Shown here in pieces: positions 1,461 through 20,086 of a stretch of DNA of 61,881 bases. The stretch is from a candidate division TM6 bacterium GW2011_GWF2_38_10. GTDB lineage: Bacteria > Babelota > Babeliae > Babelales > RVW-14. Both the position numbers and the translations under genes were made by a program. Under the pieces are notes generated by a model that was not told where the DNA came from, did not search any database, and worked only from the letters and a program-made list of their open reading frames with translations. Each line of letters opens with the position of its first letter. Position 1 is the stretch's first letter. Where the stretch lies: contig LBTY01000008.1 of the NCBI GenBank assembly GCA_000992305.1, forward strand, positions 889 through 62,769. Reading direction: 5' to 3'.

Positions 1461-1534
1461 GCAAAAAAAGCTTCAATTCACGCTGCCAGAAATAATTTTG
1501 ATTGCATCACTTAATGCATTTTCATGATATTCAC

Positions 1535-2555
1535 CTATAACAAAAGAATTCCTTTATCGTGCAAATCCTTAACCATTGCCTCAGGCCAAATACTTGCTTG
1601 CACCTGCCCAATGTGCGTCTTTTTTAAATAAAGCATACACAAACGCGACTGCCCAATCCCTCCGCCGATAGATAATGGCAACTCACCCGCAAGCAGCATA
1701 CGATGGAATAAGAGTGACGCACGAACTTGCTGCCCATGGAGCGCAAGCTGCCGCTCAAGCGCCACCTTATCAACACGAATTCCCATGGATGATAATTCAA
1801 AAGCAGATTGTAAGGCAGCGTTCCATACGAGAATATCGCCGTTCAGCCCACAAAATCCATCGCCTGTTGGAGTTGACCAATCATCATAATCGCACGAACG
1901 ACCATCATGTGGTTTTCCACTCAAAAGCACGCCACCAATGCCTATAATAAACACAGCACCGTGCTGCTTGCATGCTGCATTTTCGCGCTCTTTTGGCGAA
2001 AAGGTAGGATAACGATCTTCCAATTCTTGCGCATGAATAAACGTTATTTCAGCCGGAAGATCAATTGGTTGCTCGTTAAATTCATGCGCAACAGCCTGAG
2101 CAACCTTATACACCACGCTATAAATACTTCGTACAATCGTTTTTAAAAAATCAATGGTACGATCCTCTGCGCGAATTACTCGCTCCCAATCCCACTGATC
2201 AACATACAACGAATGAATGGCATCAAGATCTTCATCAGCACGAATTGCATTCATATCAGCATAAATCCCCGCCCCAACCGGAATGTTGTAACGAGCTAAT
2301 GTCATGCGCTTCCACTTTGCAAGCGAATGGACAATAACCGCTTGGGTAGCGCCATCAGCCCGAACAGAAAAACTCACCGGCCGCTCAACCCCGTTAAGAT
2401 CATCATTGATCAACACGCATAAGATTAAGTTCCTGAGCCAACAATCGTTGAAATGTATCTTTAACAAATGTTATTCCTAATTCAGTCTTAATAAGCTCTT
2501 GCGCCGCTGCTCGTTTTTTTGCATCACCCTCAAGTATCATTTTTGACAAAATCAT
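1535..2555 (-). pseudogene. asnA: Aspartate--ammonia ligase, frameshifted by a short deletion near 2408-2411
   Basis: HSLAKWKR, HSLYVDQWDWE, ELSSMGIRV and IGGGIGQSR are AsnA motifs. The N-terminus (ATG 2555 after AAGGA; ...FVKDTFQRLLAQELNLMRV) is in another frame, and the usual xAPLFVxxxxG segment before INDDLNG is missing. Confidence 0.85.
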
Positions 2556-2586
2556 ATCAGATCCTTTCTGCGCATACGCACATAAC

Positions 2587-2625
2587 AAAAAGAGCCCCAA
2601 CTGATCATTCAGCTGGGGCTCTTTT
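2587..2625 (-). terminator. Intrinsic terminator (attenuator) about 30 nt upstream of the asnA start
   Basis: Minus-strand AGAGCCCCAGCUGA-AUGA-UCAGUUGGGGCUCU followed by UUUUGUU. Confidence 0.9.
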
Positions 2626-2649
2626 ATTTTTTTTATTTTTTCTAACGTA

Positions 2650-2829
2650 TCATAGGTGCATCATAAACATACAGCAAACCCCAGCGGAATAATGTTGATT
2701 ATTCTGATTATTATTTTGGTTATTATTATTTTGATTAAGCTGGAAATTTACCTGATTGCAAGCAGCACAAAAACCACGGCTAATCGCCATGGAAAAAAAT
2801 GAATGATGAGAAAGTAACACCATTTTCAT
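2650..2829 (-). CDS. Asn/Gln-rich leader peptide of asnA (59 aa)
   Basis: Manual translation: MKMVLLSHHSFFSMAISRGFCAACNQVNFQLNQNNNNQNNNQNNQHYSAGVCCMFMMHL*. It has 12 Asn codons, and GTGAG lies just upstream of the ATG. Confidence 0.8.
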   Translation of the reverse strand: MKMVLLSHHSFFSMAISRGFCAACNQVNFQLNQNNNNQNNNQNNQHYSAGVCCMFMMHL

Positions 2830-2885
2830 ACAAGCTCACTTTTTGTTACTGCTTTTTCATACACACTTTGATTATTGACCCAATC

Positions 2886-2915
2886 ATCGTAGCACTAAAT
2901 AATACCGTTTGTCAA
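2886..2915 (-). promoter_or_regulatory. Sigma70-type promoter for the leader-asnA transcript
   Basis: Minus strand TTGACA-N18-TACGAT, with TG at the extended -10 position. Confidence 0.7.
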
Positions 2916-2922
2916 TTGCAAA

Positions 2923-4767
2923 TTAGCAAGCAACCTTTTTTACACGTTTAAAAACTGTTTTTTTTGCACTCACTTTTTTTCGCACAGGCTTTTTTTTAGG
3001 CTCCGCAGAAAAGGCATCATGCCGAACAACCATGCCACCTTCTTCGACCTCAAACTCCCACGCCATCGCTTTGCCCCTAAATCCAATCCCTATTTTGATG
3101 ATTTTATTAATCTTACGTGCATGCATCACCGTTGTATACTTTTTACGTTTTATTTGATCAAGTGCCTGTGCCGCCAAAACATCAAGCGGATCTTCTGTCT
3201 CCATATCATATTTTTTGAATTCAATAATTGTCCCCGCCTTAGTATGATCATGAGGAATAATGCAGATATCGTATCGGCCCGTTCCACTTTCACGGTTAGT
3301 AGTAACTTCGTGCGTCTGGCCAAGACTTACCAAAATACCAAGTATAAATGCCTGATACACATTTTCACCATCATCGCCAATGTCAAAAAAACTCATGCTT
3401 GCCAAAACATTCTCTTGAAATAATGTTAAAAATGTTTTAGGCGCTCCATCATAAATACCCATCACCATTTGATCAAATTTTGCACGATTCATTTTTTCAT
3501 CATTAAACCATGCAATAACCATTGTTTTTAATGAATCGAGCACTTCAAAATTAGGAGCAACAAGTAACGCCGTTGTTTTTCCCACCATATTTGTACGGCT
3601 CTTCCACGTAAGATATCCGGTAAAGACCAAAAATGACCACATCGCATTGGAGTCATTATACATATCGCGAAATACAATCGTATCATTGATCGTTTTTTCA
3701 ATCGATCCACCCTCCAATATTTGCAATAAATTTTTCTTATCCTCCGCCGACGCTTTTCTCATTGTTTCTTGAATAAGCATGTGCCCGCCGGTGTTGATCC
3801 AATGAGCTCCAAGAGCCTTTTTGTTAATGCATTCGATAATTGACCAGGGATTATAGATCATCGTAAAATACTCATTCCCCTGCGTATCATACTTTGGCAA
3901 GCCAACACGATAACCATTATACCATTCACGAACCTTTGTCCGATCAATCGGTGTTTGGAAATAATCAAGTATTGCAGTCACTTCACCTTCAACAAAACCA
4001 AATTTATCGGCAAATGCATCATCAAGCAACGAGTATGATGCTGAATTATTCATCCCCGAAAAAAGACTATCTTTGGCGATGCGCAAAATACCGGTGATCA
4101 CCGAAAATTCAAGATAATTATTGTCCTTAAGACCAGCGCAAAAGAAGCTGTACATGAAGTTTTTTATTTCTTCATAATAATTAAATTCAAAGCCCGCTTG
4201 CATCGGCGCATCGTATTCATCGATTAATATAATTACCTTTTGATTATAAATGTTATAAAGATGCTCTGAAAGAAACTTTAATGCTTGTTCATAATGCGTT
4301 TGAGAAGCTTTTTGAGTTATTAACGCTTGAAAAATTGATTGGCTATGCTCATCAGTAAAAGAATTCTGAAGAACTATACCGTGACGTTTACATTCGGCAG
4401 TAATTAAAAGCATTATCGCTTCGTAACATCCTTGCCACGTCAAACTTTTTATCCCCTTAAACGTTATAAAAATCACCGGATATTTCGCTTGTTGTGCCAT
4501 AATCTCTGGATAGTTCGTTATGGCGAGGCCATCAAACAAATGACGACAATCAGGCCGACTTGGATGTTTTTCAAAAAAATATTGAAGCATCGACATATTC
4601 AATGTTTTACCAAACCTGCGGGGGCGAGGAATAATCGTAACTGTTTTTGTTTTATGCTTAAAAATGTCGTAAATAAACATTGATTTATCAACATAATAAC
4701 AATTACTTTCAATCAATGTTTTAAAATCGTGAATCCCAAGCCCTATATTTTTTTGTTCCATAGCCAT
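2923..4767 (-). CDS. AAA-ATPase-like protein with C-terminal PD-(D/E)XK nuclease domain (copy 1)
   Basis: YYVDKS, RPRRFGKT Walker A, LIDEYD Walker B, WYNGY, YNPWS and NRESGTGRYD...IIEFK; Lys-rich tail. Confidence 0.9.
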   Translation of the reverse strand: MAMEQKNIGLGIHDFKTLIESNCYYVDKSMFIYDIFKHKTKTVTIIPRPRRFGKTLNMSMLQYFFEKHPSRPDCRHLFDGLAITNYPEIMAQQAKYPVIFITFKGIKSLTWQGCYEAIMLLITAECKRHGIVLQNSFTDEHSQSIFQALITQKASQTHYEQALKFLSEHLYNIYNQKVIILIDEYDAPMQAGFEFNYYEEIKNFMYSFFCAGLKDNNYLEFSVITGILRIAKDSLFSGMNNSASYSLLDDAFADKFGFVEGEVTAILDYFQTPIDRTKVREWYNGYRVGLPKYDTQGNEYFTMIYNPWSIIECINKKALGAHWINTGGHMLIQETMRKASAEDKKNLLQILEGGSIEKTINDTIVFRDMYNDSNAMWSFLVFTGYLTWKSRTNMVGKTTALLVAPNFEVLDSLKTMVIAWFNDEKMNRAKFDQMVMGIYDGAPKTFLTLFQENVLASMSFFDIGDDGENVYQAFILGILVSLGQTHEVTTNRESGTGRYDICIIPHDHTKAGTIIEFKKYDMETEDPLDVLAAQALDQIKRKKYTTVMHARKINKIIKIGIGFRGKAMAWEFEVEEGGMVVRHDAFSAEPKKKPVRKKVSAKKTVFKRVKKVAC

Positions 4768-7578: not shown

Positions 7579-9595
7579 TCAACTATGGGCAGGATCAACA
7601 ACCACGCTCCCAGAAACATGCAATGTTGTAGCCGCGGAGTAGCGAACATCACAATCCTGTGTTGCATCAGTACCACCGTTACCCAAGGTCAATGCCGCAG
7701 CAGGAGCACCGGATGTTATATAATTGTAGGTGACGGGGAATGTGCATAAATAATAATTTGATTTATAAGCCGCAATTTTTTCACCAGCCGGATGCCAAGC
7801 AACCAATTTATAAGGATTCCCATCAGTCGAAACTGTTTGAACAATTGTTGCCTGCCCGTTCCATATGCGATAAACCAAGAAATTATTATAACTTTGCGAT
7901 GATCTACCAACCAAAAGATACCGTGAATCTACTGACCATGACAAAGAATGTGCATATTGCGGCATAGATCCAGTTACACGTGCACCAAATGTTCCATCTT
8001 CTTGATTCATGTAATAAATATAGAGAGCATCTGTCGTACTAATCATTGAATAGGTTGCGGCAAGATAGGTTCCATCCGGTGACCATGTTATAGATGTTGG
8101 AGGAAAATTTCCACTCTTTCCCAATGCTTGAGTCAAAGTCCAGTTACCACTAACATCTACTGTCCCAACCTTAAGCCTATAATCATCAACCGATCCCCAA
8201 CTCAAAGCAAGGCATCTTCCATTTGGTGACCACGCTAAAGCAAACACTTGCGAAACACCGCTATGCGTTACAACCGTGCCCAACGTTTTATTTTCATTAA
8301 CGGGATAAATATAGAAATTAGCATCTCCACCAACAGCCAACCATTTTCCATCAGGTGAAAAAGCTAAAGAATAAATGGAATCTCCAACATTTTTCGCTTC
8401 TACTAAACTACAATTTCCAAGGCTATCAATACGATATACACTTATTAAGTTACTTCCTGAAGGAAAGACAAAACAATCACTATCAGGAGTCCATGCTATT
8501 AAATTAACCCCATCATTTGTAAAACTATTCATGAAGAATCCACCCATAGCTGCGGAAAATACAGAAGTTGTAAGATCGGAAGCTTTAAAAACATTCAAAA
8601 AATAAGGAGAGCCAAGACCTATTGCTAACCAAGCTCCATTAGGAGACCATACATTTGCTCTTATCAAACTATACGAAGTATCAGTTCGATCTCCTACTAC
8701 AGGAGTCGCAATCGCCGAGGTAACATTCACATCAACCGTGTTGTTTAACCCCAGCTGCCCCCGAGTTAACCGTAACCCCTGACCCACAACATCAAGCGAT
8801 GCATTGTCAACTATCAACCGTGATGAAGCATCTGCAAGCTTCACAAAACCACTATCATTCGCATACGGAGCATATAAAAATGTTGAACCATCTTGAACAT
8901 ACAAACTACTTTGTGAAGCAATATAAGCCGGCTTAGTAGAGCGATCTTCCAGTAACAACAACATCATGATGAAAAAAATGCTGACCACCCTTTAAATCAA
9001 GATCATAGCCAAGTGAAAAAATAACATTATCAAAACATAATTTGCTACTCCCTGAACAATCTAATTGCGTTTTGCTAACAGCAATACGATCAGTGCTAAT
9101 AATCATGTTGCGTAAGGTCACCGTAGCATTTGCATCTACCATCAACTGCGCATGCGGCTCAAAAGTCAACGTCCGCCCGCCGCCGTCAATCACCATATCG
9201 CCGGCGCAATGAACAACCTTACCCGAAGGGATTCTTAGATTACCCCCAAGCGTAAGCCCCTTGCCCGCCGATGAAAAATAACCGCCATCAGAGATAGTTA
9301 CGTGGCTATCAAGTGCAAGATCACGCGCTAAGTGCACCGCGCCCGTGCCCCGCAGATCAATGGCGCCAGAAACAGATGTTACGCAATCCATCGTAATGGC
9401 AGCACCCGGCAACACCGTAAACCCATCGGCAAAATAAACAAACCCCTGAGCCTGATCGCCGTCACGAAAAACATGGTTATACTGTTGAAAGGCAACCCCC
9501 GTTGTGCCATCAATTGACTCGGCACGAACCCCAATGGTCAACAATGCTACTCCCAGCAATGCGCCACAACAAAACATTATGCTACGCTTGAGCAT
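7579..9595 (-). pseudogene. Exported scaffold + WD40 protein (paralog 2), frameshifted near 8943-8946
   Basis: ORFs 8933-9595 and 7579-8988 are consecutive halves collinear with paralog 3. About five codons (the SALxY motif) are missing at the junction. Confidence 0.8.
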
Positions 9596-9687: not shown

Positions 9688-11283
9688 TTACGCTTTCTCA
9701 ACTAACCATTTTAACGAAACACTCTTTCCCTTAGTAAAATAAAAGCTAATCCCAACATGCATAACCGGCAGCTTGCTCTCTACCACATACTTATAGGAAT
9801 AATTATTTTTTTTAATTTGCGCTAGCGCCGCCGCTGGATTACGATCCTTTTTAAACTCAATCACGAACACATTCGTTGGCGTAGTGATAACTCCATCAAT
9901 AAATCCAAGGTCGGTAGCTTCTTCAACAAACATATGCACACCCAACAACTTGCAGATAGTAAAAAAGGTTGCCTGATAGCACTTTTCTCGATTTACAATA
10001 ACGTTGTGCGGGATCAAACGCATAAAGTTTTGCATATGCATTAAAAACGTATCCACATCGCCGGCAAGCAACGCCCGACGAAACTTAGCAATCCAATCAG
10101 CAAATGCATCAAGCGAAACCTGCACAAGCTCAAGCATAATCTGCTCGGTGCACGAACGACGAACTTCTTCATTGGGATAGTGCAACCAATACATCGAAGC
10201 AAAATCATCATATTCTTTAATGGTCAAATATCCCGTCTGCAAAAACAATACCAACAAATTATCATACAATCGTGCAATATTAAAATTTTGAATCGATGAT
10301 GATGAAATTTTTTGCAATTCAAGCGTGAGTAACTGCTCCTTTAATTCGTTGCGCTTCTCTTCTGGCGCATCGGTGAGCGCGGTGAGCATAAATTTTGGCG
10401 TACCGCTTGAAAACCAATAGTTTTCTATTTTTTTATCATCTAAACAATATGCAATCGAAAAGGGATTGTATACCTTTTCGCCTTGATTTGAAAACTTAAA
10501 CCCGTTATACCATCGCTTAAGCTCTGCAAGAGCTTGTTGATATGTCCACCCCTTTGCTTGTGCCAACGCATTAATGTGTTCCTTAAAATTTTCTTCCAGT
10601 TCTTGTTGTGTATAACCACACATGGTTGCCACATCTTCATTCATAGAAAGATCTTTAAGATTATTCAACTCCGAAAAAAGTGAAACCTTAGAAAATCGGC
10701 TCACACCGGTAATAAATAAAAAACGCATGCAGCTGCCAACATTATTCCCCTTGAAAACACCATAAAGGCTGCGCATAAGTTGTTGCATTTTTTCAACCAT
10801 CGCTTTATCATCAATGTGGTCCAAAATCGGCTTGTCATATTCATCAATAATCACCGCAACTGGGCCATGCTTTTCATGCAATTTTATAATCAATTGAGCC
10901 AAATAAGTTCCAGGAGCAATTGATTGATCAATGCTTACACCATATTTTTGTGCACAATTGTGTAACGTAACTTTTACGTTATCGATTAATTCCGTATCAG
11001 TTTTATGACTCACCTCGGCAAAACTGATATGGATCACCGGATGTTTTTTCCAATCATACTCCATGCAGCTTATTGCAAGGCCATCAAATAATTCTTTTTT
11101 ACCCTGAAAAATAGCTTCTAATGTTGAACAAGTTAATGACTTGCCAAAACGACGAGGCCGTGATAAAAAAAATGCACCATAGTTTTTAATAAGCTTGCAA
11201 AGATGAGCAGTTTTGTCAACATATGCACACCCCTGATTAATCAATAATTCAAAGCTTGAAATCGATACGGCAAGTTTTTTCAT
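9688..11283 (-). CDS. AAA-ATPase-like protein with PD-(D/E)XK nuclease domain (copy 2, divergent)
   Basis: YVDKT, RPRRFGKS, IIDEYDKP, WYNGF, YNPFS and GFID...VIEFK. Likely start is MKKLAV at 11283. Confidence 0.88.
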   Translation of the reverse strand: MKKLAVSISSFELLINQGCAYVDKTAHLCKLIKNYGAFFLSRPRRFGKSLTCSTLEAIFQGKKELFDGLAISCMEYDWKKHPVIHISFAEVSHKTDTELIDNVKVTLHNCAQKYGVSIDQSIAPGTYLAQLIIKLHEKHGPVAVIIDEYDKPILDHIDDKAMVEKMQQLMRSLYGVFKGNNVGSCMRFLFITGVSRFSKVSLFSELNNLKDLSMNEDVATMCGYTQQELEENFKEHINALAQAKGWTYQQALAELKRWYNGFKFSNQGEKVYNPFSIAYCLDDKKIENYWFSSGTPKFMLTALTDAPEEKRNELKEQLLTLELQKISSSSIQNFNIARLYDNLLVLFLQTGYLTIKEYDDFASMYWLHYPNEEVRRSCTEQIMLELVQVSLDAFADWIAKFRRALLAGDVDTFLMHMQNFMRLIPHNVIVNREKCYQATFFTICKLLGVHMFVEEATDLGFIDGVITTPTNVFVIEFKKDRNPAAALAQIKKNNYSYKYVVESKLPVMHVGISFYFTKGKSVSLKWLVEKA

Positions 11284-11362
11284 CGCATTCCTTTTCATCA
11301 TAACATCACTGTCCTATCCCGCAAACACATAGACAAGCGTAAGTATATCACATAAATTTCAG

Positions 11363-16277: not shown

Positions 16278-18218
16278 TTACACAGCGTTATAAACAACAT
16301 TACCACCAACAATAACACGCGCATTAGATAAAATGTTTACCGAACAATTATTGCTTGCATATTCTCCATCTCCAAAAGAAATCTCTTTATTAATAGCCTT
16401 TCCCGAATACGTTACCGGATACAGCTCAAGATCATTAGACCCAGACTGTTTTCCAATGGCACAATATCCCCCATCAGCTGATACCGATATTTGTGCTGAA
16501 CTCGATAGTGCGAAAGATGACACATATGCCGCCTGCCCACCAACAAATGAAAACCAACGCACCGTATTATTCCCAACACTCAATAGAAAATTTCCACCAG
16601 ACACCCAATCTATTCCTGAAATTGACGAACCAGAAACAGTTGATGTTAATTGCAACTGAGCATTGGCAAAAGAATAAATACGTAAATTCGAACTCCCAAT
16701 CGCTACATAATTACCATCGGGAGACCATGCTAACGTCGAAACAGATCCATCACTAACAGTCTGGACCCAATCAAAAGACTCATCAACAAGTCGATACAAA
16801 CGCAGATCAGAGGCACCGACCGCTAAATACCGTCCATCACGAGACCACTTCAAACTATTCACACTACTTCCCACATTCACCGTCTGCAAATACGTAAGTT
16901 GCCCGTATTTAAAAGAATATAATTCAAGCCCAACCGTATCGGTATAATATTTACCAATCGCTAAAAATCTACCATCAGGAGACCAAGCAACCGGCCGCAC
17001 CTGATTACTAATGGTAAACGTTTGCTTGGACTGTAACAATCCATCTTCTAATGCATATAAAACAAGACGAGGTGTACTATCTCGTCCAATGGCAAGATAG
17101 TTACCATCGGGAGACCAGGCAACACAATGAACGCTATTAGCACCACCGAGTGATTGCTTATGCACCAACTGCCCACCTTCTAAAGCATAAAGATGCAACC
17201 TATCAGTACCAGATAATGTACCAACCGCAACATAACGCCCATTAGGAGAAAATGCTAAGGTAAAAACTGATACAAGGTTAACTGATTGAAGCTTTGATGC
17301 ACTTACCACAGATAGATTGAAATCACGCTGCTCAATAGATACTAAATCATCAAAATACACGTCCCCATTGGTAAGTTGCATACCAGTCCCAGTTGCTTTA
17401 AGCGTTGCACCATCAAAAAATAATGAAGCTGTTTCATCAACAAACTTTAACAAATCCCTATGCGAAGTACATGGAGAAAATGAAAATGTTGTTCCATAAT
17501 CAAAATATAATTGACTTGCAGGAGCAACAAAACTTGGCACCGACGCCGCATACACAAGCGCACTAGTTCCGGTCACCACCACATCATTATGGAAAAAAAA
17601 CTGCCCTTTATTCAAATATAAATCATTACCCAAATTGAGTACCACATTATCAAAACAAAGCTTACTCAACGACGTAGAAACGTGAAGAGCCGGTTGGCCA
17701 GGGTACGATCGATCAACCATTAACACCATATTTTTTAGAGTAAGCGTACTATCAGTATCCAAAAATAATTGCGTATCGGGCTCTAAATGAAGTGTATTTC
17801 CATGCCCATCAATAACCATATCACCCGCACAATGCACGACAACCCCTCGCGGAACCGTAACATCAGAATGTAAAGCGACACCACTCCCCTCAGACAAAAT
17901 ATATCCCCCTTGGGTAATGGTACTTTGATTATCAAGCGCAAGACAACCTTCTAACACAAGATTACCAGTTCCTCGCAAATCAATGCTTCCTGCTACAGGA
18001 TACAAACAATTCACAGTCGCAGTTGCATTATTAAGCACCGTAAAACCATCATCTAAATATACAAACCCCTTGGCTTGCTCACCATCACGAAAAACATGAT
18101 GATCTTCTTTAAAAATAACACTCGACGTTCCATCAAGCGACGCCGCAGAAAGCCCAATAGTCACCAATGTTATTCCCAACAATGCGCCACCCCAAAAAAC
18201 TATGCTATGCTTGAGCAT
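16278..18218 (-). CDS. Exported scaffold + WD40 beta-propeller protein (paralog 3)
   Basis: Signal peptide, SLDGT...KGFVY...IDLRGTG scaffold, about seven WSPDG-type blades and a conserved C-terminal cap. Confidence 0.85.
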   Translation of the reverse strand: MLKHSIVFWGGALLGITLVTIGLSAASLDGTSSVIFKEDHHVFRDGEQAKGFVYLDDGFTVLNNATATVNCLYPVAGSIDLRGTGNLVLEGCLALDNQSTITQGGYILSEGSGVALHSDVTVPRGVVVHCAGDMVIDGHGNTLHLEPDTQLFLDTDSTLTLKNMVLMVDRSYPGQPALHVSTSLSKLCFDNVVLNLGNDLYLNKGQFFFHNDVVVTGTSALVYAASVPSFVAPASQLYFDYGTTFSFSPCTSHRDLLKFVDETASLFFDGATLKATGTGMQLTNGDVYFDDLVSIEQRDFNLSVVSASKLQSVNLVSVFTLAFSPNGRYVAVGTLSGTDRLHLYALEGGQLVHKQSLGGANSVHCVAWSPDGNYLAIGRDSTPRLVLYALEDGLLQSKQTFTISNQVRPVAWSPDGRFLAIGKYYTDTVGLELYSFKYGQLTYLQTVNVGSSVNSLKWSRDGRYLAVGASDLRLYRLVDESFDWVQTVSDGSVSTLAWSPDGNYVAIGSSNLRIYSFANAQLQLTSTVSGSSISGIDWVSGGNFLLSVGNNTVRWFSFVGGQAAYVSSFALSSSAQISVSADGGYCAIGKQSGSNDLELYPVTYSGKAINKEISFGDGEYASNNCSVNILSNARVIVGGNVVYNAV

Positions 18219-18286: not shown

Positions 18287-20086
18287 TCACTTTTTTGTTC
18301 CTCGTTTTTTGCTCTGTTTTTTAGGCTCTGCAGAGTAAGCTCCCTTACTTATTAACATACCCGAATTGTACACCTGGTACATCCATGCCATATGCTTGCC
18401 TTGAAACGCAATACCTATTTTGGCCACCACTAAAATCCCTCGCCGCTGCATTTCAAGATCATACGCATATTCATCAATCTGCTCACGAGCTCCTTTGGCA
18501 TACGTTGATAATGGTTTTTTTTCAGAAAGCTTGCGTCGCTTAAACTCAATAATCATCCCCATTTTTTTTGTATCCTTGGGAAAAATACATACATCATAGC
18601 GGCCGTATCCACTTTCACGATTTGATGCTGTTTCATACGTATGACCAAGGCTGGCAAAAATCCCCAACGCAAAAGCCTGATAGGCATTTTCCCCTTTATC
18701 ACCAACATCAAAAAAACTTAAACTTTCTAAAACCGCTTGCTCAAAATTTTGCAAAAATTCCTCAACATCACCCGTTTTAATCCCATTAATCATGTGATCA
18801 AAATAAACACGACTTGCGGGAACTTCATTAAACCATGACGTAACCATTGTTTTTAACGAATCCAAAACTTCAAAATTAGGAGCAATAAGCGCCGCTGTTG
18901 TTTTACCCACCATATTTGTGCGACTCTTCCACGTAAGGTATCCAGTAAACACTAAAAATGACCACAACGCACTTGAATCATTGTACACATCGCGGAATAC
19001 AATCGTATCGCTAATTGTTTTTTCAATCGAACCACCATCTAATATTCGCAGCAAATTCTCTTTATCCTCTGCCGATGCCTTACGCATAGATTTTTCAATA
19101 AGCATATGCACGCCCGTGTTGATCCAATGAGCACCAAGAGCCTTTTTATTAATGCATTCAATAATTGACCAAGGATTATAGACCATCGTAAAAGACTCAT
19201 GCCCCTGCACATCGTACTTTGGCAAACCAACACGATAGCCATTGTACCATTCACGAACTTTTTCTCGATCAATCTGCGTTTGAAAATAATTAAGCACTGC
19301 TGTCACTTCATCTTCTAAAAAACCAAATTTATCGGCAAACGCATCATCAAGCAACGAGTATGTTGCTGCATTATTCATCCCCGAAAAAAGGCTATCTTTG
19401 GCAATGCGCAAAATACCCGTTATCACCGAAAATTCAAGATAATTATTGTCTTTCAAGCCAGCGCAAAAAAAATTGTACATAAAATTTTTTATTTCTTCAT
19501 AATAATTAAATTCAAAACCAGCTTGCATTGGCGCATCATATTCATCGATGAGAATAATTACTTTTTGATTATAAACATTATAAAGATGCTCTGAAAGAAA
19601 TTTCAACGCTTGTTCATAATGTGTTTGAGACGCTTTTTGAGTTATCAACGCCTGCCAAATTGACTGATTATGCTCATCAATACATGAATTTTGAAGCACA
19701 ACACCATGACGTTTACATTCGGCAGTAATTAAAAGCGTTATCGCTTCGTAGCATCCTTGCCACGTCGAACTTTTTATCCCCTTAAACGAGATAAAAATAA
19801 CAGGATATTGCCCTTGCTGCGCCATAACTTCAGGATAGTTTGTTATGGCAAGACCATCAAACAAATGACGATTATCAGATTGTTTTGGATTTTTTTCAAA
19901 AAAATATTGAAGCATCGACATATTCAATGTTTTTCCAAACCTGCGGGGGCGCGGAAGAATCGTTACCGGTTTTGCTTCATGCAAAACATCGTAAATAAAC
20001 ATTGACTTATCAACATAGTAATAACCACGCTCAATCAATGTTTTAAAATCGTGAACACCTAATCCAAGTTCTTTTTTCATCATCAT
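18287..20086 (-). CDS. AAA-ATPase-like protein with PD-(D/E)XK nuclease domain (copy 3, close paralog of copy 1)
   Basis: Same motifs as copy 1, with long identical peptide stretches in the ATPase part. Confidence 0.9.
   Translation of the reverse strand: MMMKKELGLGVHDFKTLIERGYYYVDKSMFIYDVLHEAKPVTILPRPRRFGKTLNMSMLQYFFEKNPKQSDNRHLFDGLAITNYPEVMAQQGQYPVIFISFKGIKSSTWQGCYEAITLLITAECKRHGVVLQNSCIDEHNQSIWQALITQKASQTHYEQALKFLSEHLYNVYNQKVIILIDEYDAPMQAGFEFNYYEEIKNFMYNFFCAGLKDNNYLEFSVITGILRIAKDSLFSGMNNAATYSLLDDAFADKFGFLEDEVTAVLNYFQTQIDREKVREWYNGYRVGLPKYDVQGHESFTMVYNPWSIIECINKKALGAHWINTGVHMLIEKSMRKASAEDKENLLRILDGGSIEKTISDTIVFRDVYNDSSALWSFLVFTGYLTWKSRTNMVGKTTAALIAPNFEVLDSLKTMVTSWFNEVPASRVYFDHMINGIKTGDVEEFLQNFEQAVLESLSFFDVGDKGENAYQAFALGIFASLGHTYETASNRESGYGRYDVCIFPKDTKKMGMIIEFKRRKLSEKKPLSTYAKGAREQIDEYAYDLEMQRRGILVVAKIGIAFQGKHMAWMYQVYNSGMLISKGAYSAEPKKQSKKRGTKK

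Follow-up and report, generated by a model that had tools for sequence, protein, structure and literature searches.

Our analysis points to a ribosome-mediated (leader-peptide) transcription attenuator that would sense Asn-tRNA and control asnA, the aspartate-ammonia ligase gene of the candidate division TM6 bacterium GW2011_GWF2_38_10. The element lies on the minus strand of a 61,881-nucleotide stretch of contig LBTY01000008.1 (assembly GCA_000992305.1), referred to here as the window, whose positions serve as coordinates throughout. It joins a short open reading frame (ORF) carrying a run of cognate codons to an intrinsic terminator and an antiterminator that excludes it, and the gene that follows serves biosynthesis of the same amino acid. 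An initial annotation, made from the window alone, had proposed Asn-codon-dependent attenuation of asnA, and the comparison with relatives supports the proposal: the layout recurs in 19 of the order's 23 genomes with asnA, all 20 leaders keep the Asn frame open, and the antiterminator pairs covary with a score that none of 500 column shuffles reached. On this comparative sequence evidence we give the attenuator a probability of about 80%.

Every coordinate of the initial annotation proved correct, and the promoter, ORF, tract, RNA segments, terminator and asnA start are all in place (Table 1). The 59-codon ORF does contain the described stretch of 14 codons, 10 for Asn and 4 for Gln, and segment 2 begins nine nucleotides past the end of this tract. 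The U-tailed terminator reported ahead of the asnA start is a 17-pair stem (2625-2588, 8 G-C pairs) with a loop of 4 and a T-rich tail; the asnA ATG at 2555 follows 30 nt beyond it. Upstream of the leader lies a gene for an AAA-ATPase_like/PDDEXK_9 protein.

Table 1. Elements of the asnA leader locus (window positions)
Element	Position	Strand	Remarks
Promoter-like site TTGACA-N18-TACGAT	2915-2886	-	10/12 consensus matches; -35 at 2915-2910, 18-nt spacer, TG-extended -10 at 2891-2886
Leader ORF, 59 codons and stop TGA (2652-2650)	2829-2650	-	peptide MKMVLLSHHSFFSMAISRGFCAACNQVNFQLNQNNNNQNNNQNNQHYSAGVCCMFMMHL
Segment 1 AAAUUUCCAGC, proposed protector partner of segment 2	2749-2739	-	directly upstream of tract
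Regulatory tract NQNNNNQNNNQNNQ, codons 32-45	2736-2695	-	10 Asn and 4 Gln codons in 14
Segment 2 GCTGGGGTTT (also given as GCUGGGGUUU)	2685-2676	-	within leader ORF, codons A49-C52
Segment 3, terminator 5' arm	2625-2609	-	antiterminator part GAGCCCCAGC at 2621-2612
Segment 4, terminator 3' arm (2604-2588) and T-rich tail	2604-2580	-	17-pair stem
asnA ribosome-binding site AGAAAGGA and ATG start (2555-2553)	2569-2553	-	from sequence
asnA (aspartate-ammonia ligase), regulated gene, split in assembly at 2411/2412	2555-1535	-	Pfam PF03590, 7.6e-87

We infer ribosome stalling, ribosome-polymerase coupling and the direction of regulation along the following lines. Transcription would start at the TTGACA/TACGAT promoter, and a ribosome would translate the leader ORF as the polymerase proceeds. 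When charged tRNA-Asn is scarce, the ribosome would stall in the Asn/Gln tract between segments 1 and 2 and leave segment 2 (GCUGGGGUUU) free; segment 3, on emerging, could then pair with it into a 10-bp antiterminator, which would block the terminator and allow asnA to be transcribed. With ample Asn-tRNA the ribosome would run past segment 2 to the stop codon, segment 2 would be occupied or retaken by segment 1, and segments 3 and 4 would form the 17-bp U-tailed terminator, ending transcription near 2585. Full-length transcripts always favour the terminator when folded, as we would expect if the switch were decided kinetically, during transcription.

The leader stands apart from its genomic background (1,051,759 bases, 38.3% G+C, 89% complete, with no 16S rRNA gene in the assembly). 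Among all stop-to-stop frames of the genome, taken in six frames, no other is as dense in Asn as the leader frame (10 of 14 codons); three frames reach 8 of 14, and none 9 of 14. Folding of the 325-nt leader gives -90.1 kcal/mol (z = -4.59), a value that none of 100 shuffles matches. The predicted 10-bp pairing of segment 2 with the terminator 5' arm is confirmed: the stretch that partners the arm ends at 2675, the duplex has an energy of -19.2 to -19.4 kcal/mol, and the value of -19.4 kcal/mol is equalled by 2 of 1000 mononucleotide shuffles of the leader.

A further structure lies in the 5' part of the leader ORF. It is a 7-pair hairpin (CCAUGGC...GCCGUGG followed by UUUUU; 2792-2765, minus strand) that was flagged as terminator-like, and it could be a polymerase pause site letting the ribosome catch up.

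Conservation and covariation of the leader

The order was surveyed through 261 species genomes, most of them 0.7-1.9 Mb in size, and asnA (PF03590) is present in 23, the window's genome included. In the 19 genomes with the complete layout, an Asn/Gln-rich short ORF, a GCUGGGGU-like segment inside it and a terminator all stand upstream of asnA; one genome (G003) carries two copies, giving 20 leaders in total. Three of the other genomes are interrupted by contig ends, one retaining the terminator 3' arm and U run and another only the stretch beyond the terminator, while G053 has an Asn-rich ORF without a convincing terminator. With leader starts assumed at the first ATG, the ORFs of relatives span 27-76 codons and stop 1-9 codons past segment 2; their terminator 5' arms are ACCCCAGC-like. 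In 12 of the 20 leaders, a site of the strict pattern TTGAC[ATC]-N15-19-TAnnnT lies no more than 160 nt ahead of the leader ATG.

Asn codons account for 149 of the 400 codons that precede segment 2 (20 codons in each of the 20 leaders), compared with 4.75% in long open frames genome-wide, and 18 leaders have at least 6 within those 20 codons. While the Asn frame is open everywhere, at least one of the other two frames has stops in each leader, with 2-8 in the more closed one. The initial annotation had named, as one of the findings that would count against it, relatives that keep the AAT repeat without the reading frame and the complementarity; in the relatives the frame is kept open and the complementarity of segments 2 and 3 is retained.

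Gln codons are also enriched in the same stretch (74 of 400 versus 4.39% genome-wide); in 17 of the leaders they number three or more. This would suit an attenuator of the same kind whose interspersed Gln codons respond to Gln-tRNA as well and so link the ammonia-using asnA to amide-nitrogen status, as the initial annotation had suggested. The presence of gatB in 5 of 5 relatives tested points in the same direction, as it implies amidotransferase-dependent charging in the lineage, where an indirect (amidotransferase) route to Asn-tRNA is possible; in the window's genome gatB is found as a fragment only, at a contig end. However, the tracts of analogous leaders in Hymenobacter, Flavobacteriales and Anaerolineales contain 0-1 Gln codons and that of a Marinifilaceae leader 2, and CAA may merely interrupt an unstable AAT repeat and keep the tract unstructured. 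We therefore consider sensing of Gln in addition to Asn decidedly unlikely.

Covariation was counted on a MAFFT alignment of the 20 leaders. In the antiterminator (2:3), 85.5% of 200 cells are paired, and double changes occur in 6 of 10 pairs (13 cells); a shift of the partner by one column lowers pairing to 49% and 57%. Distinct compensating variants are seen, namely GCCGGGGU/ACCCCGGC, GCUGAGG/CCUCGG and CUAGGGC/GCCCUGG, and together with the slide control they argue that segment 2 truly tracks the terminator arm. In the terminator (3:4), 86.6% of 238 cells are paired, with double changes in 6 of 12 pairs (24 cells), and RNAalifold predicts this helix de novo. The covarying helices and Asn-rich ORFs that the initial annotation had suggested looking for upstream of asnA were thus both found. 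We also compared window positions 1500-3000 with DNA contigs of four sequencing runs (X1, X3, X4 and X6): 0 of 40 listed differences fall within 2676-2685 or 2588-2625, with 104 further differences outside this listing. A look for RNA runs containing the stretch gave none, which speaks neither for nor against the attenuator.

These data bear on two other accounts of the locus. The sequences of the GCUGGGGU and ACCCCAGC segments are more conserved than pairing alone demands, as might be seen if termination were controlled by a protein, small RNA or ligand binding these segments and not by the ribosome. Such control would not need an open frame of cognate codons, yet this is kept in every leader; there is no match to the T-box or another Rfam family, the RNA between the segments is A/U-rich and unconserved, and analogues in other phyla share the codons while differing in segment sequences. 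We find an account of this kind hardly credible. The other would be a functional Asn/Gln-rich peptide with a terminator of its own, asnA being transcribed separately and the complementarity being incidental. The ORF is indeed long for a leader, and in 11 of 20 loci 100-450 nt, a further small ORF and once a whole gene lie between terminator and asnA. But conservation is confined to the tract and the RNA segments and does not extend to the N-terminal regions of the peptides; segment 2 covaries with the terminator arm, the unit is tied to asnA in 19 of 23 genomes, and no promoter-like site is listed between terminator and asnA in the window. A free-standing peptide gene is thus very improbable.

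Several observations weigh against the attenuator and are set out here. They concern first the protector helix between segments 1 and 2, which had been part of the initial annotation and is the weakest element of the reading. The pairing of AAAUUUCCAGC with segment 2 is present in minimum-energy folds of the window leader; however, in the alignment 70.5% of cells are paired with 0 double changes, 343 of 500 shuffles reach this paired fraction, and RNAalifold run on the 20 leaders does not predict the helix. The energy of the duplex (-13.1 kcal/mol) is equalled by 76 of 1000 shuffles and is not beyond chance alone, and segment 2 is less complementary to segment 1 than to segment 3. In most leaders, folding the transcript as far as segment 2 pairs this segment with RNA immediately 5' of the tract (e.g. 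UCCCAGC), so that a protector whose position varies across leaders is plausible but weakly supported. Folding with and without a ribosome mask, which the initial annotation had recommended, also gave a divided result. With a 30-nt footprint, a crude model that ignores sterics and kinetics, a mask centred on Asn codon 36 makes the transcript ending at segment 3 fold into 2:3 with 10 pairs, while the unmasked transcript folds into 1:2; with the mask on later Asn codons (41 and 44) segment 1 is uncovered and the fold is still 1:2.

The second difficulty concerns the end of the leader. In 13 leaders no more than 5 codons separate the stop codon from segment 2, but in the window and 6 others it lies 6-9 codons past that segment. 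A terminating ribosome covers about 15 nt upstream, and in the window segment 2 ends 23 nt ahead of the leader stop; a ribosome at this stop would therefore leave segment 2 uncovered, and the textbook state of termination would seem to fit most relatives better than the window copy. The window leader is long as well, as are those of its relatives, compared with the 14-32 codons of classical leaders. It should also be noted that the relatedness of the 20 leaders makes the shuffle controls overstate their independence. Contigs of close relatives show an in-frame loss of 15 nt (5 codons) from the tract (run X6) and a synonymous change of AAC to AAT at 2719 (run X4). The in-frame length change is weak evidence for translation, because slippage on an AAT repeat would also give multiples of three. 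Two leaders, the second copy of G003 (G003b) and that of G175, have 3-4 Asn codons only. Finally, asnA is broken as assembled, though probably not in the organism (see below).

Segment 2 and the terminator are retained in both low-Asn leaders, L019 (G003:C150, NHNSNSSIS) and L106 (G175, NNYFFWCNFAN). These copies may be in decay or may have been re-tuned, and the second copy of G003 may come from another organism, the contamination estimate for that genome being 5%.

Four features of the proposed attenuator are shown by the analysis: its anatomy, the conservation of the layout in front of asnA, an Asn frame that stays open, and covariation in helices 2:3 and 3:4.

Integrity of asnA and the supply of asparagine

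The initial annotation had overlooked that asnA is split. Its frame, starting at 2555, ends in a stop at 2403, the remainder is contained in an ORF at 2467-1535, and the Pfam AsnA match is restricted to profile positions 36-227. The N-terminal frame aligns with the N-termini of AsnA in relatives; where they have RVTAPLFVKxGTGINDDLNG, the window has RV, one base and INDDLNG. Contigs of runs X3 and X6 (about 90-95% alike) hold 32 extra letters exactly between 2411 and 2412, and in X4 the same letters appear as loose ends at both flanks. A manual minus-strand translation of these letters gives TAPLFVKAGT and two bases of the next Gly codon, and the frame is restored. In X1, the best match and the probable source run, no contig bridges 2411/2412: one contig ends at 2411, and another starts 26 letters before 2412 with letters that do not fit the window. 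Because the letters from X3, X6 and X4 restore the frame and no X1 contig spans the junction, the frameshift is likely an assembly fault or a minor variant. The apparent asnA pseudogene is then probably an artefact of assembly, which matters for metabolic reconstructions of this organism.

The same split can be read as a real 32-nt frameshifting deletion, which would leave the attenuator without a working target in this genome. Besides the interrupted frame and the partial Pfam match, the complement of other genes might be taken to agree with such a relic: AsnRS (TIGR00457) was not found in the 89%-complete genome, and an asnB-type synthase is present (PF00733, a 651-codon frame on contig C10). 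But the contigs of the other runs speak for an intact gene, the leader itself is intact, and at this completeness a missing AsnRS is weak evidence. We regard the relic as rather unlikely.

Of the family's 34 genomes, 32 have AsnRS, as does every genome with asnA among the 60 relatives searched, and the window's genome has a single tRNA-Asn(GUU). Both observations are consistent with Asn-tRNA as the signal read by the attenuator. The asnA gene is under AsnC in E. coli and under T-boxes in Firmicutes, and we looked for both kinds of control. No AsnC_trans_reg domain (PF01037) was matched in the 89%-complete genome, and the gene next to the leader encodes the AAA-ATPase_like/PDDEXK_9 protein, not a regulator of the AsnC/Lrp type. 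There is no T-box (RF00230) among 46 Rfam matches with E up to 10 at 2300-3100, nor was one found genome-wide.

Permease leaders, analogues in other phyla and neighbouring features

A covariance model built from the 20-leader alignment (150 positions) was searched against 151 genomes of the order. It gave 11 matches of at least 79 bits, all upstream of asnA, and four further matches of 57-64 bits. Two of the four (G001 and G057) consist of a short ORF and a terminator directly upstream of an APC-family permease (AA_permease_2, 1.1e-35), and permease orthologues in G002, G025 and G018 have similar leader units. The matches at G026:C13 and G177:C17 (57-62 bits) show a terminator without an Asn run and were set aside, as were weak matches of 36-50 bits in many genomes, which look like A/U-rich terminators. 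The permease units (L126 in G001:C6, L125/L134 in G057:C1, L131 in G002, L132 in G025 and L133 in G018) share a short ORF, a GGCCGGG-type segment and a terminator; a clear Asn run (SNNNNK) is present in the G001 unit only. They may be the uptake arm of the same regulon. If so, the leader-fronted permease would make a small asparagine-supply regulon, and the substrate of the permease would be predicted. In the window's genome, neither a leader nor a terminator precedes the closest homologue of this permease (46% identity, contig C12).

In about 11 of the 20 loci a second small ORF with a GAAAGG ribosome-binding site lies between terminator and asnA (L010 in G002, L005, L008, L004, L007, L006, L014, L016, L011, L101 and L103). 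It starts M-N-(N/T/Q/D)-(D/E), is rich in Asn and Asp codons (e.g. MNNDDNQS), and in some loci runs up to or into the start of asnA; neither the window nor the four loci of genus g15 have it. Translational coupling and a second sensor are both possibilities. In L008 (G001) a 170-codon ORF (about 676-1188) lies between the Asn leader-terminator and the small ORF with asnA, and because of this location it would be under the attenuator; by one motif, HEYDHLDG, it resembles peptide deformylase. MITE-like inverted-repeat insertions with GGATCC-containing arms were seen in the long 5' untranslated region between terminator and asnA in two same-genus genomes (L005, about 1140-1385, and L010, about 1310-1420).

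Beyond the order, an AsnA profile scan of one genome per species gave 80 loci, mostly from Bacteroidota. An Asn-rich frame lies within 600 nt upstream in 10 of them, one of which (L021) is a same-genus contig. Of the other nine, six were folded (L065, L074, L079, L086, L096 and L098; L033, L067 and L091 were left aside) and five were tested for complementarity. These five are analogues upstream of asnA, found in Hymenobacter endophyticus, H. frigidus and metagenome-assembled genomes of Marinifilaceae, Flavobacteriales and Anaerolineales (L074, L079, L086, L096 and L098). They have a short ORF of 19-29 codons with 5-8 Asn codons near its end and a U-tailed terminator, followed by asnA, and a segment in or just past the ORF is complementary to the terminator 5' arm. 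In four cases this complementarity was reached by 0, 0, 0 and 2 of 200 shuffles; in L096 (Flavobacteriales) it is weak, 14 of 200 shuffles reaching the level. The segments differ from those of the window's order (e.g. GGAAGGCU/AGCCUUCC), and the leaders are shorter, with few or no Gln codons. L065 was rejected as an analogue, since it has an Asn-rich ORF but its hairpin lacks a U tail, and L097, with a 13-codon N/Q-containing ORF, lacks a terminator. The sister-group loci L030, L042 and L045 have no Asn leader.

A quick maximum-likelihood tree of 100 AsnA proteins places the order's 21 together to one side of a branch (SH-aLRT 93, not starred), and the families of the order are intermixed within this group. 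Leader-holders of Bacteroidota lie elsewhere, and AsnA of the analogues is not sister to that of the window's order, except loosely in L098. Either the Asn-leader design is old and often lost, or it has arisen more than once. The mixing of families suggests that asnA and its leader may move together within the order. A wider proposal follows, which we make tentatively and with more doubt than confidence: a ribosome-dependent "Asn leader" class, absent from Rfam, in at least three phylum-level lineages, comprising in the order a travelling asnA cassette, a permease regulon and a dual Asn/Gln sensor.

Elsewhere in the window there are three paralogous genes for AAA-ATPase_like and PDDEXK_9 proteins (2923-4767, 9688-11301 and 18287-20086, all on the minus strand) and at least two for WD40 beta-propeller proteins (7579-8988 and 16278-18218). 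Genes of these two kinds within 20 kb are an unusual load for a 1-Mb genome.

Relation to known control systems

Leader-peptide attenuation is well established for Trp, His, Phe, Leu, Thr and Ile/Val. Full-text literature searches gave no description of an Asn-codon leader for asnA; older surveys of attenuation may bear on priority, those of Vitreschak (2004) and Lopatovskaya (2010) reportedly being of this kind. The available part of PMC4833913 does not mention asn. No Rfam 15 family reaches its gathering score in 16 asnA loci with leaders.

If real, the leader would give asnA a third mode of regulation, next to AsnC and T-boxes, by which very small and probably host-dependent genomes keep a protein-free matching of asparagine synthesis to demand. 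It would also give annotators a recognisable RNA element, as the covariance model separates asnA leaders (at least 79 bits) from background. Since analogues are found in cultivable Hymenobacter, the mechanism is open to a direct bench test.

The closest known element is the his leader. Rfam His_leader (RF00514) matches 2585-2704 below threshold (38.5 bits, E = 1.7e-4; gathering cut-off 49 bits), in keeping with a common architecture: a short ORF with consecutive codons for the end product, mutually exclusive protector, antiterminator and terminator hairpins, and an intrinsic terminator before a biosynthetic gene. The window leader is nevertheless not a his leader, as its tract holds Asn and Gln codons and a single His codon comes after it; moreover it is much longer, and its single target gene is asnA. 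Its tract is placed in the loop between segments 1 and 2, whereas the his codons are inside segment 1.

With the trp leader it has in common the four-segment logic, 1:2 versus 2:3 versus 3:4, in which segment 2 is freed by a stalled ribosome. The trp leader has two regulatory codons as against 10 in 14 here, and in our case 1:2 lacks comparative support and the stop is 23 nt past segment 2. T-box leaders (RF00230), which serve asnA in Firmicutes, likewise sense tRNA charging and choose between terminator and antiterminator, but they bind uncharged tRNA directly, without translation, and the window leader has no T-box match. AsnC of E. coli acts on the same gene, presumably in answer to the same signal, asparagine; it is, however, a protein transcription factor acting at the promoter, unlike the RNA leader of the window.

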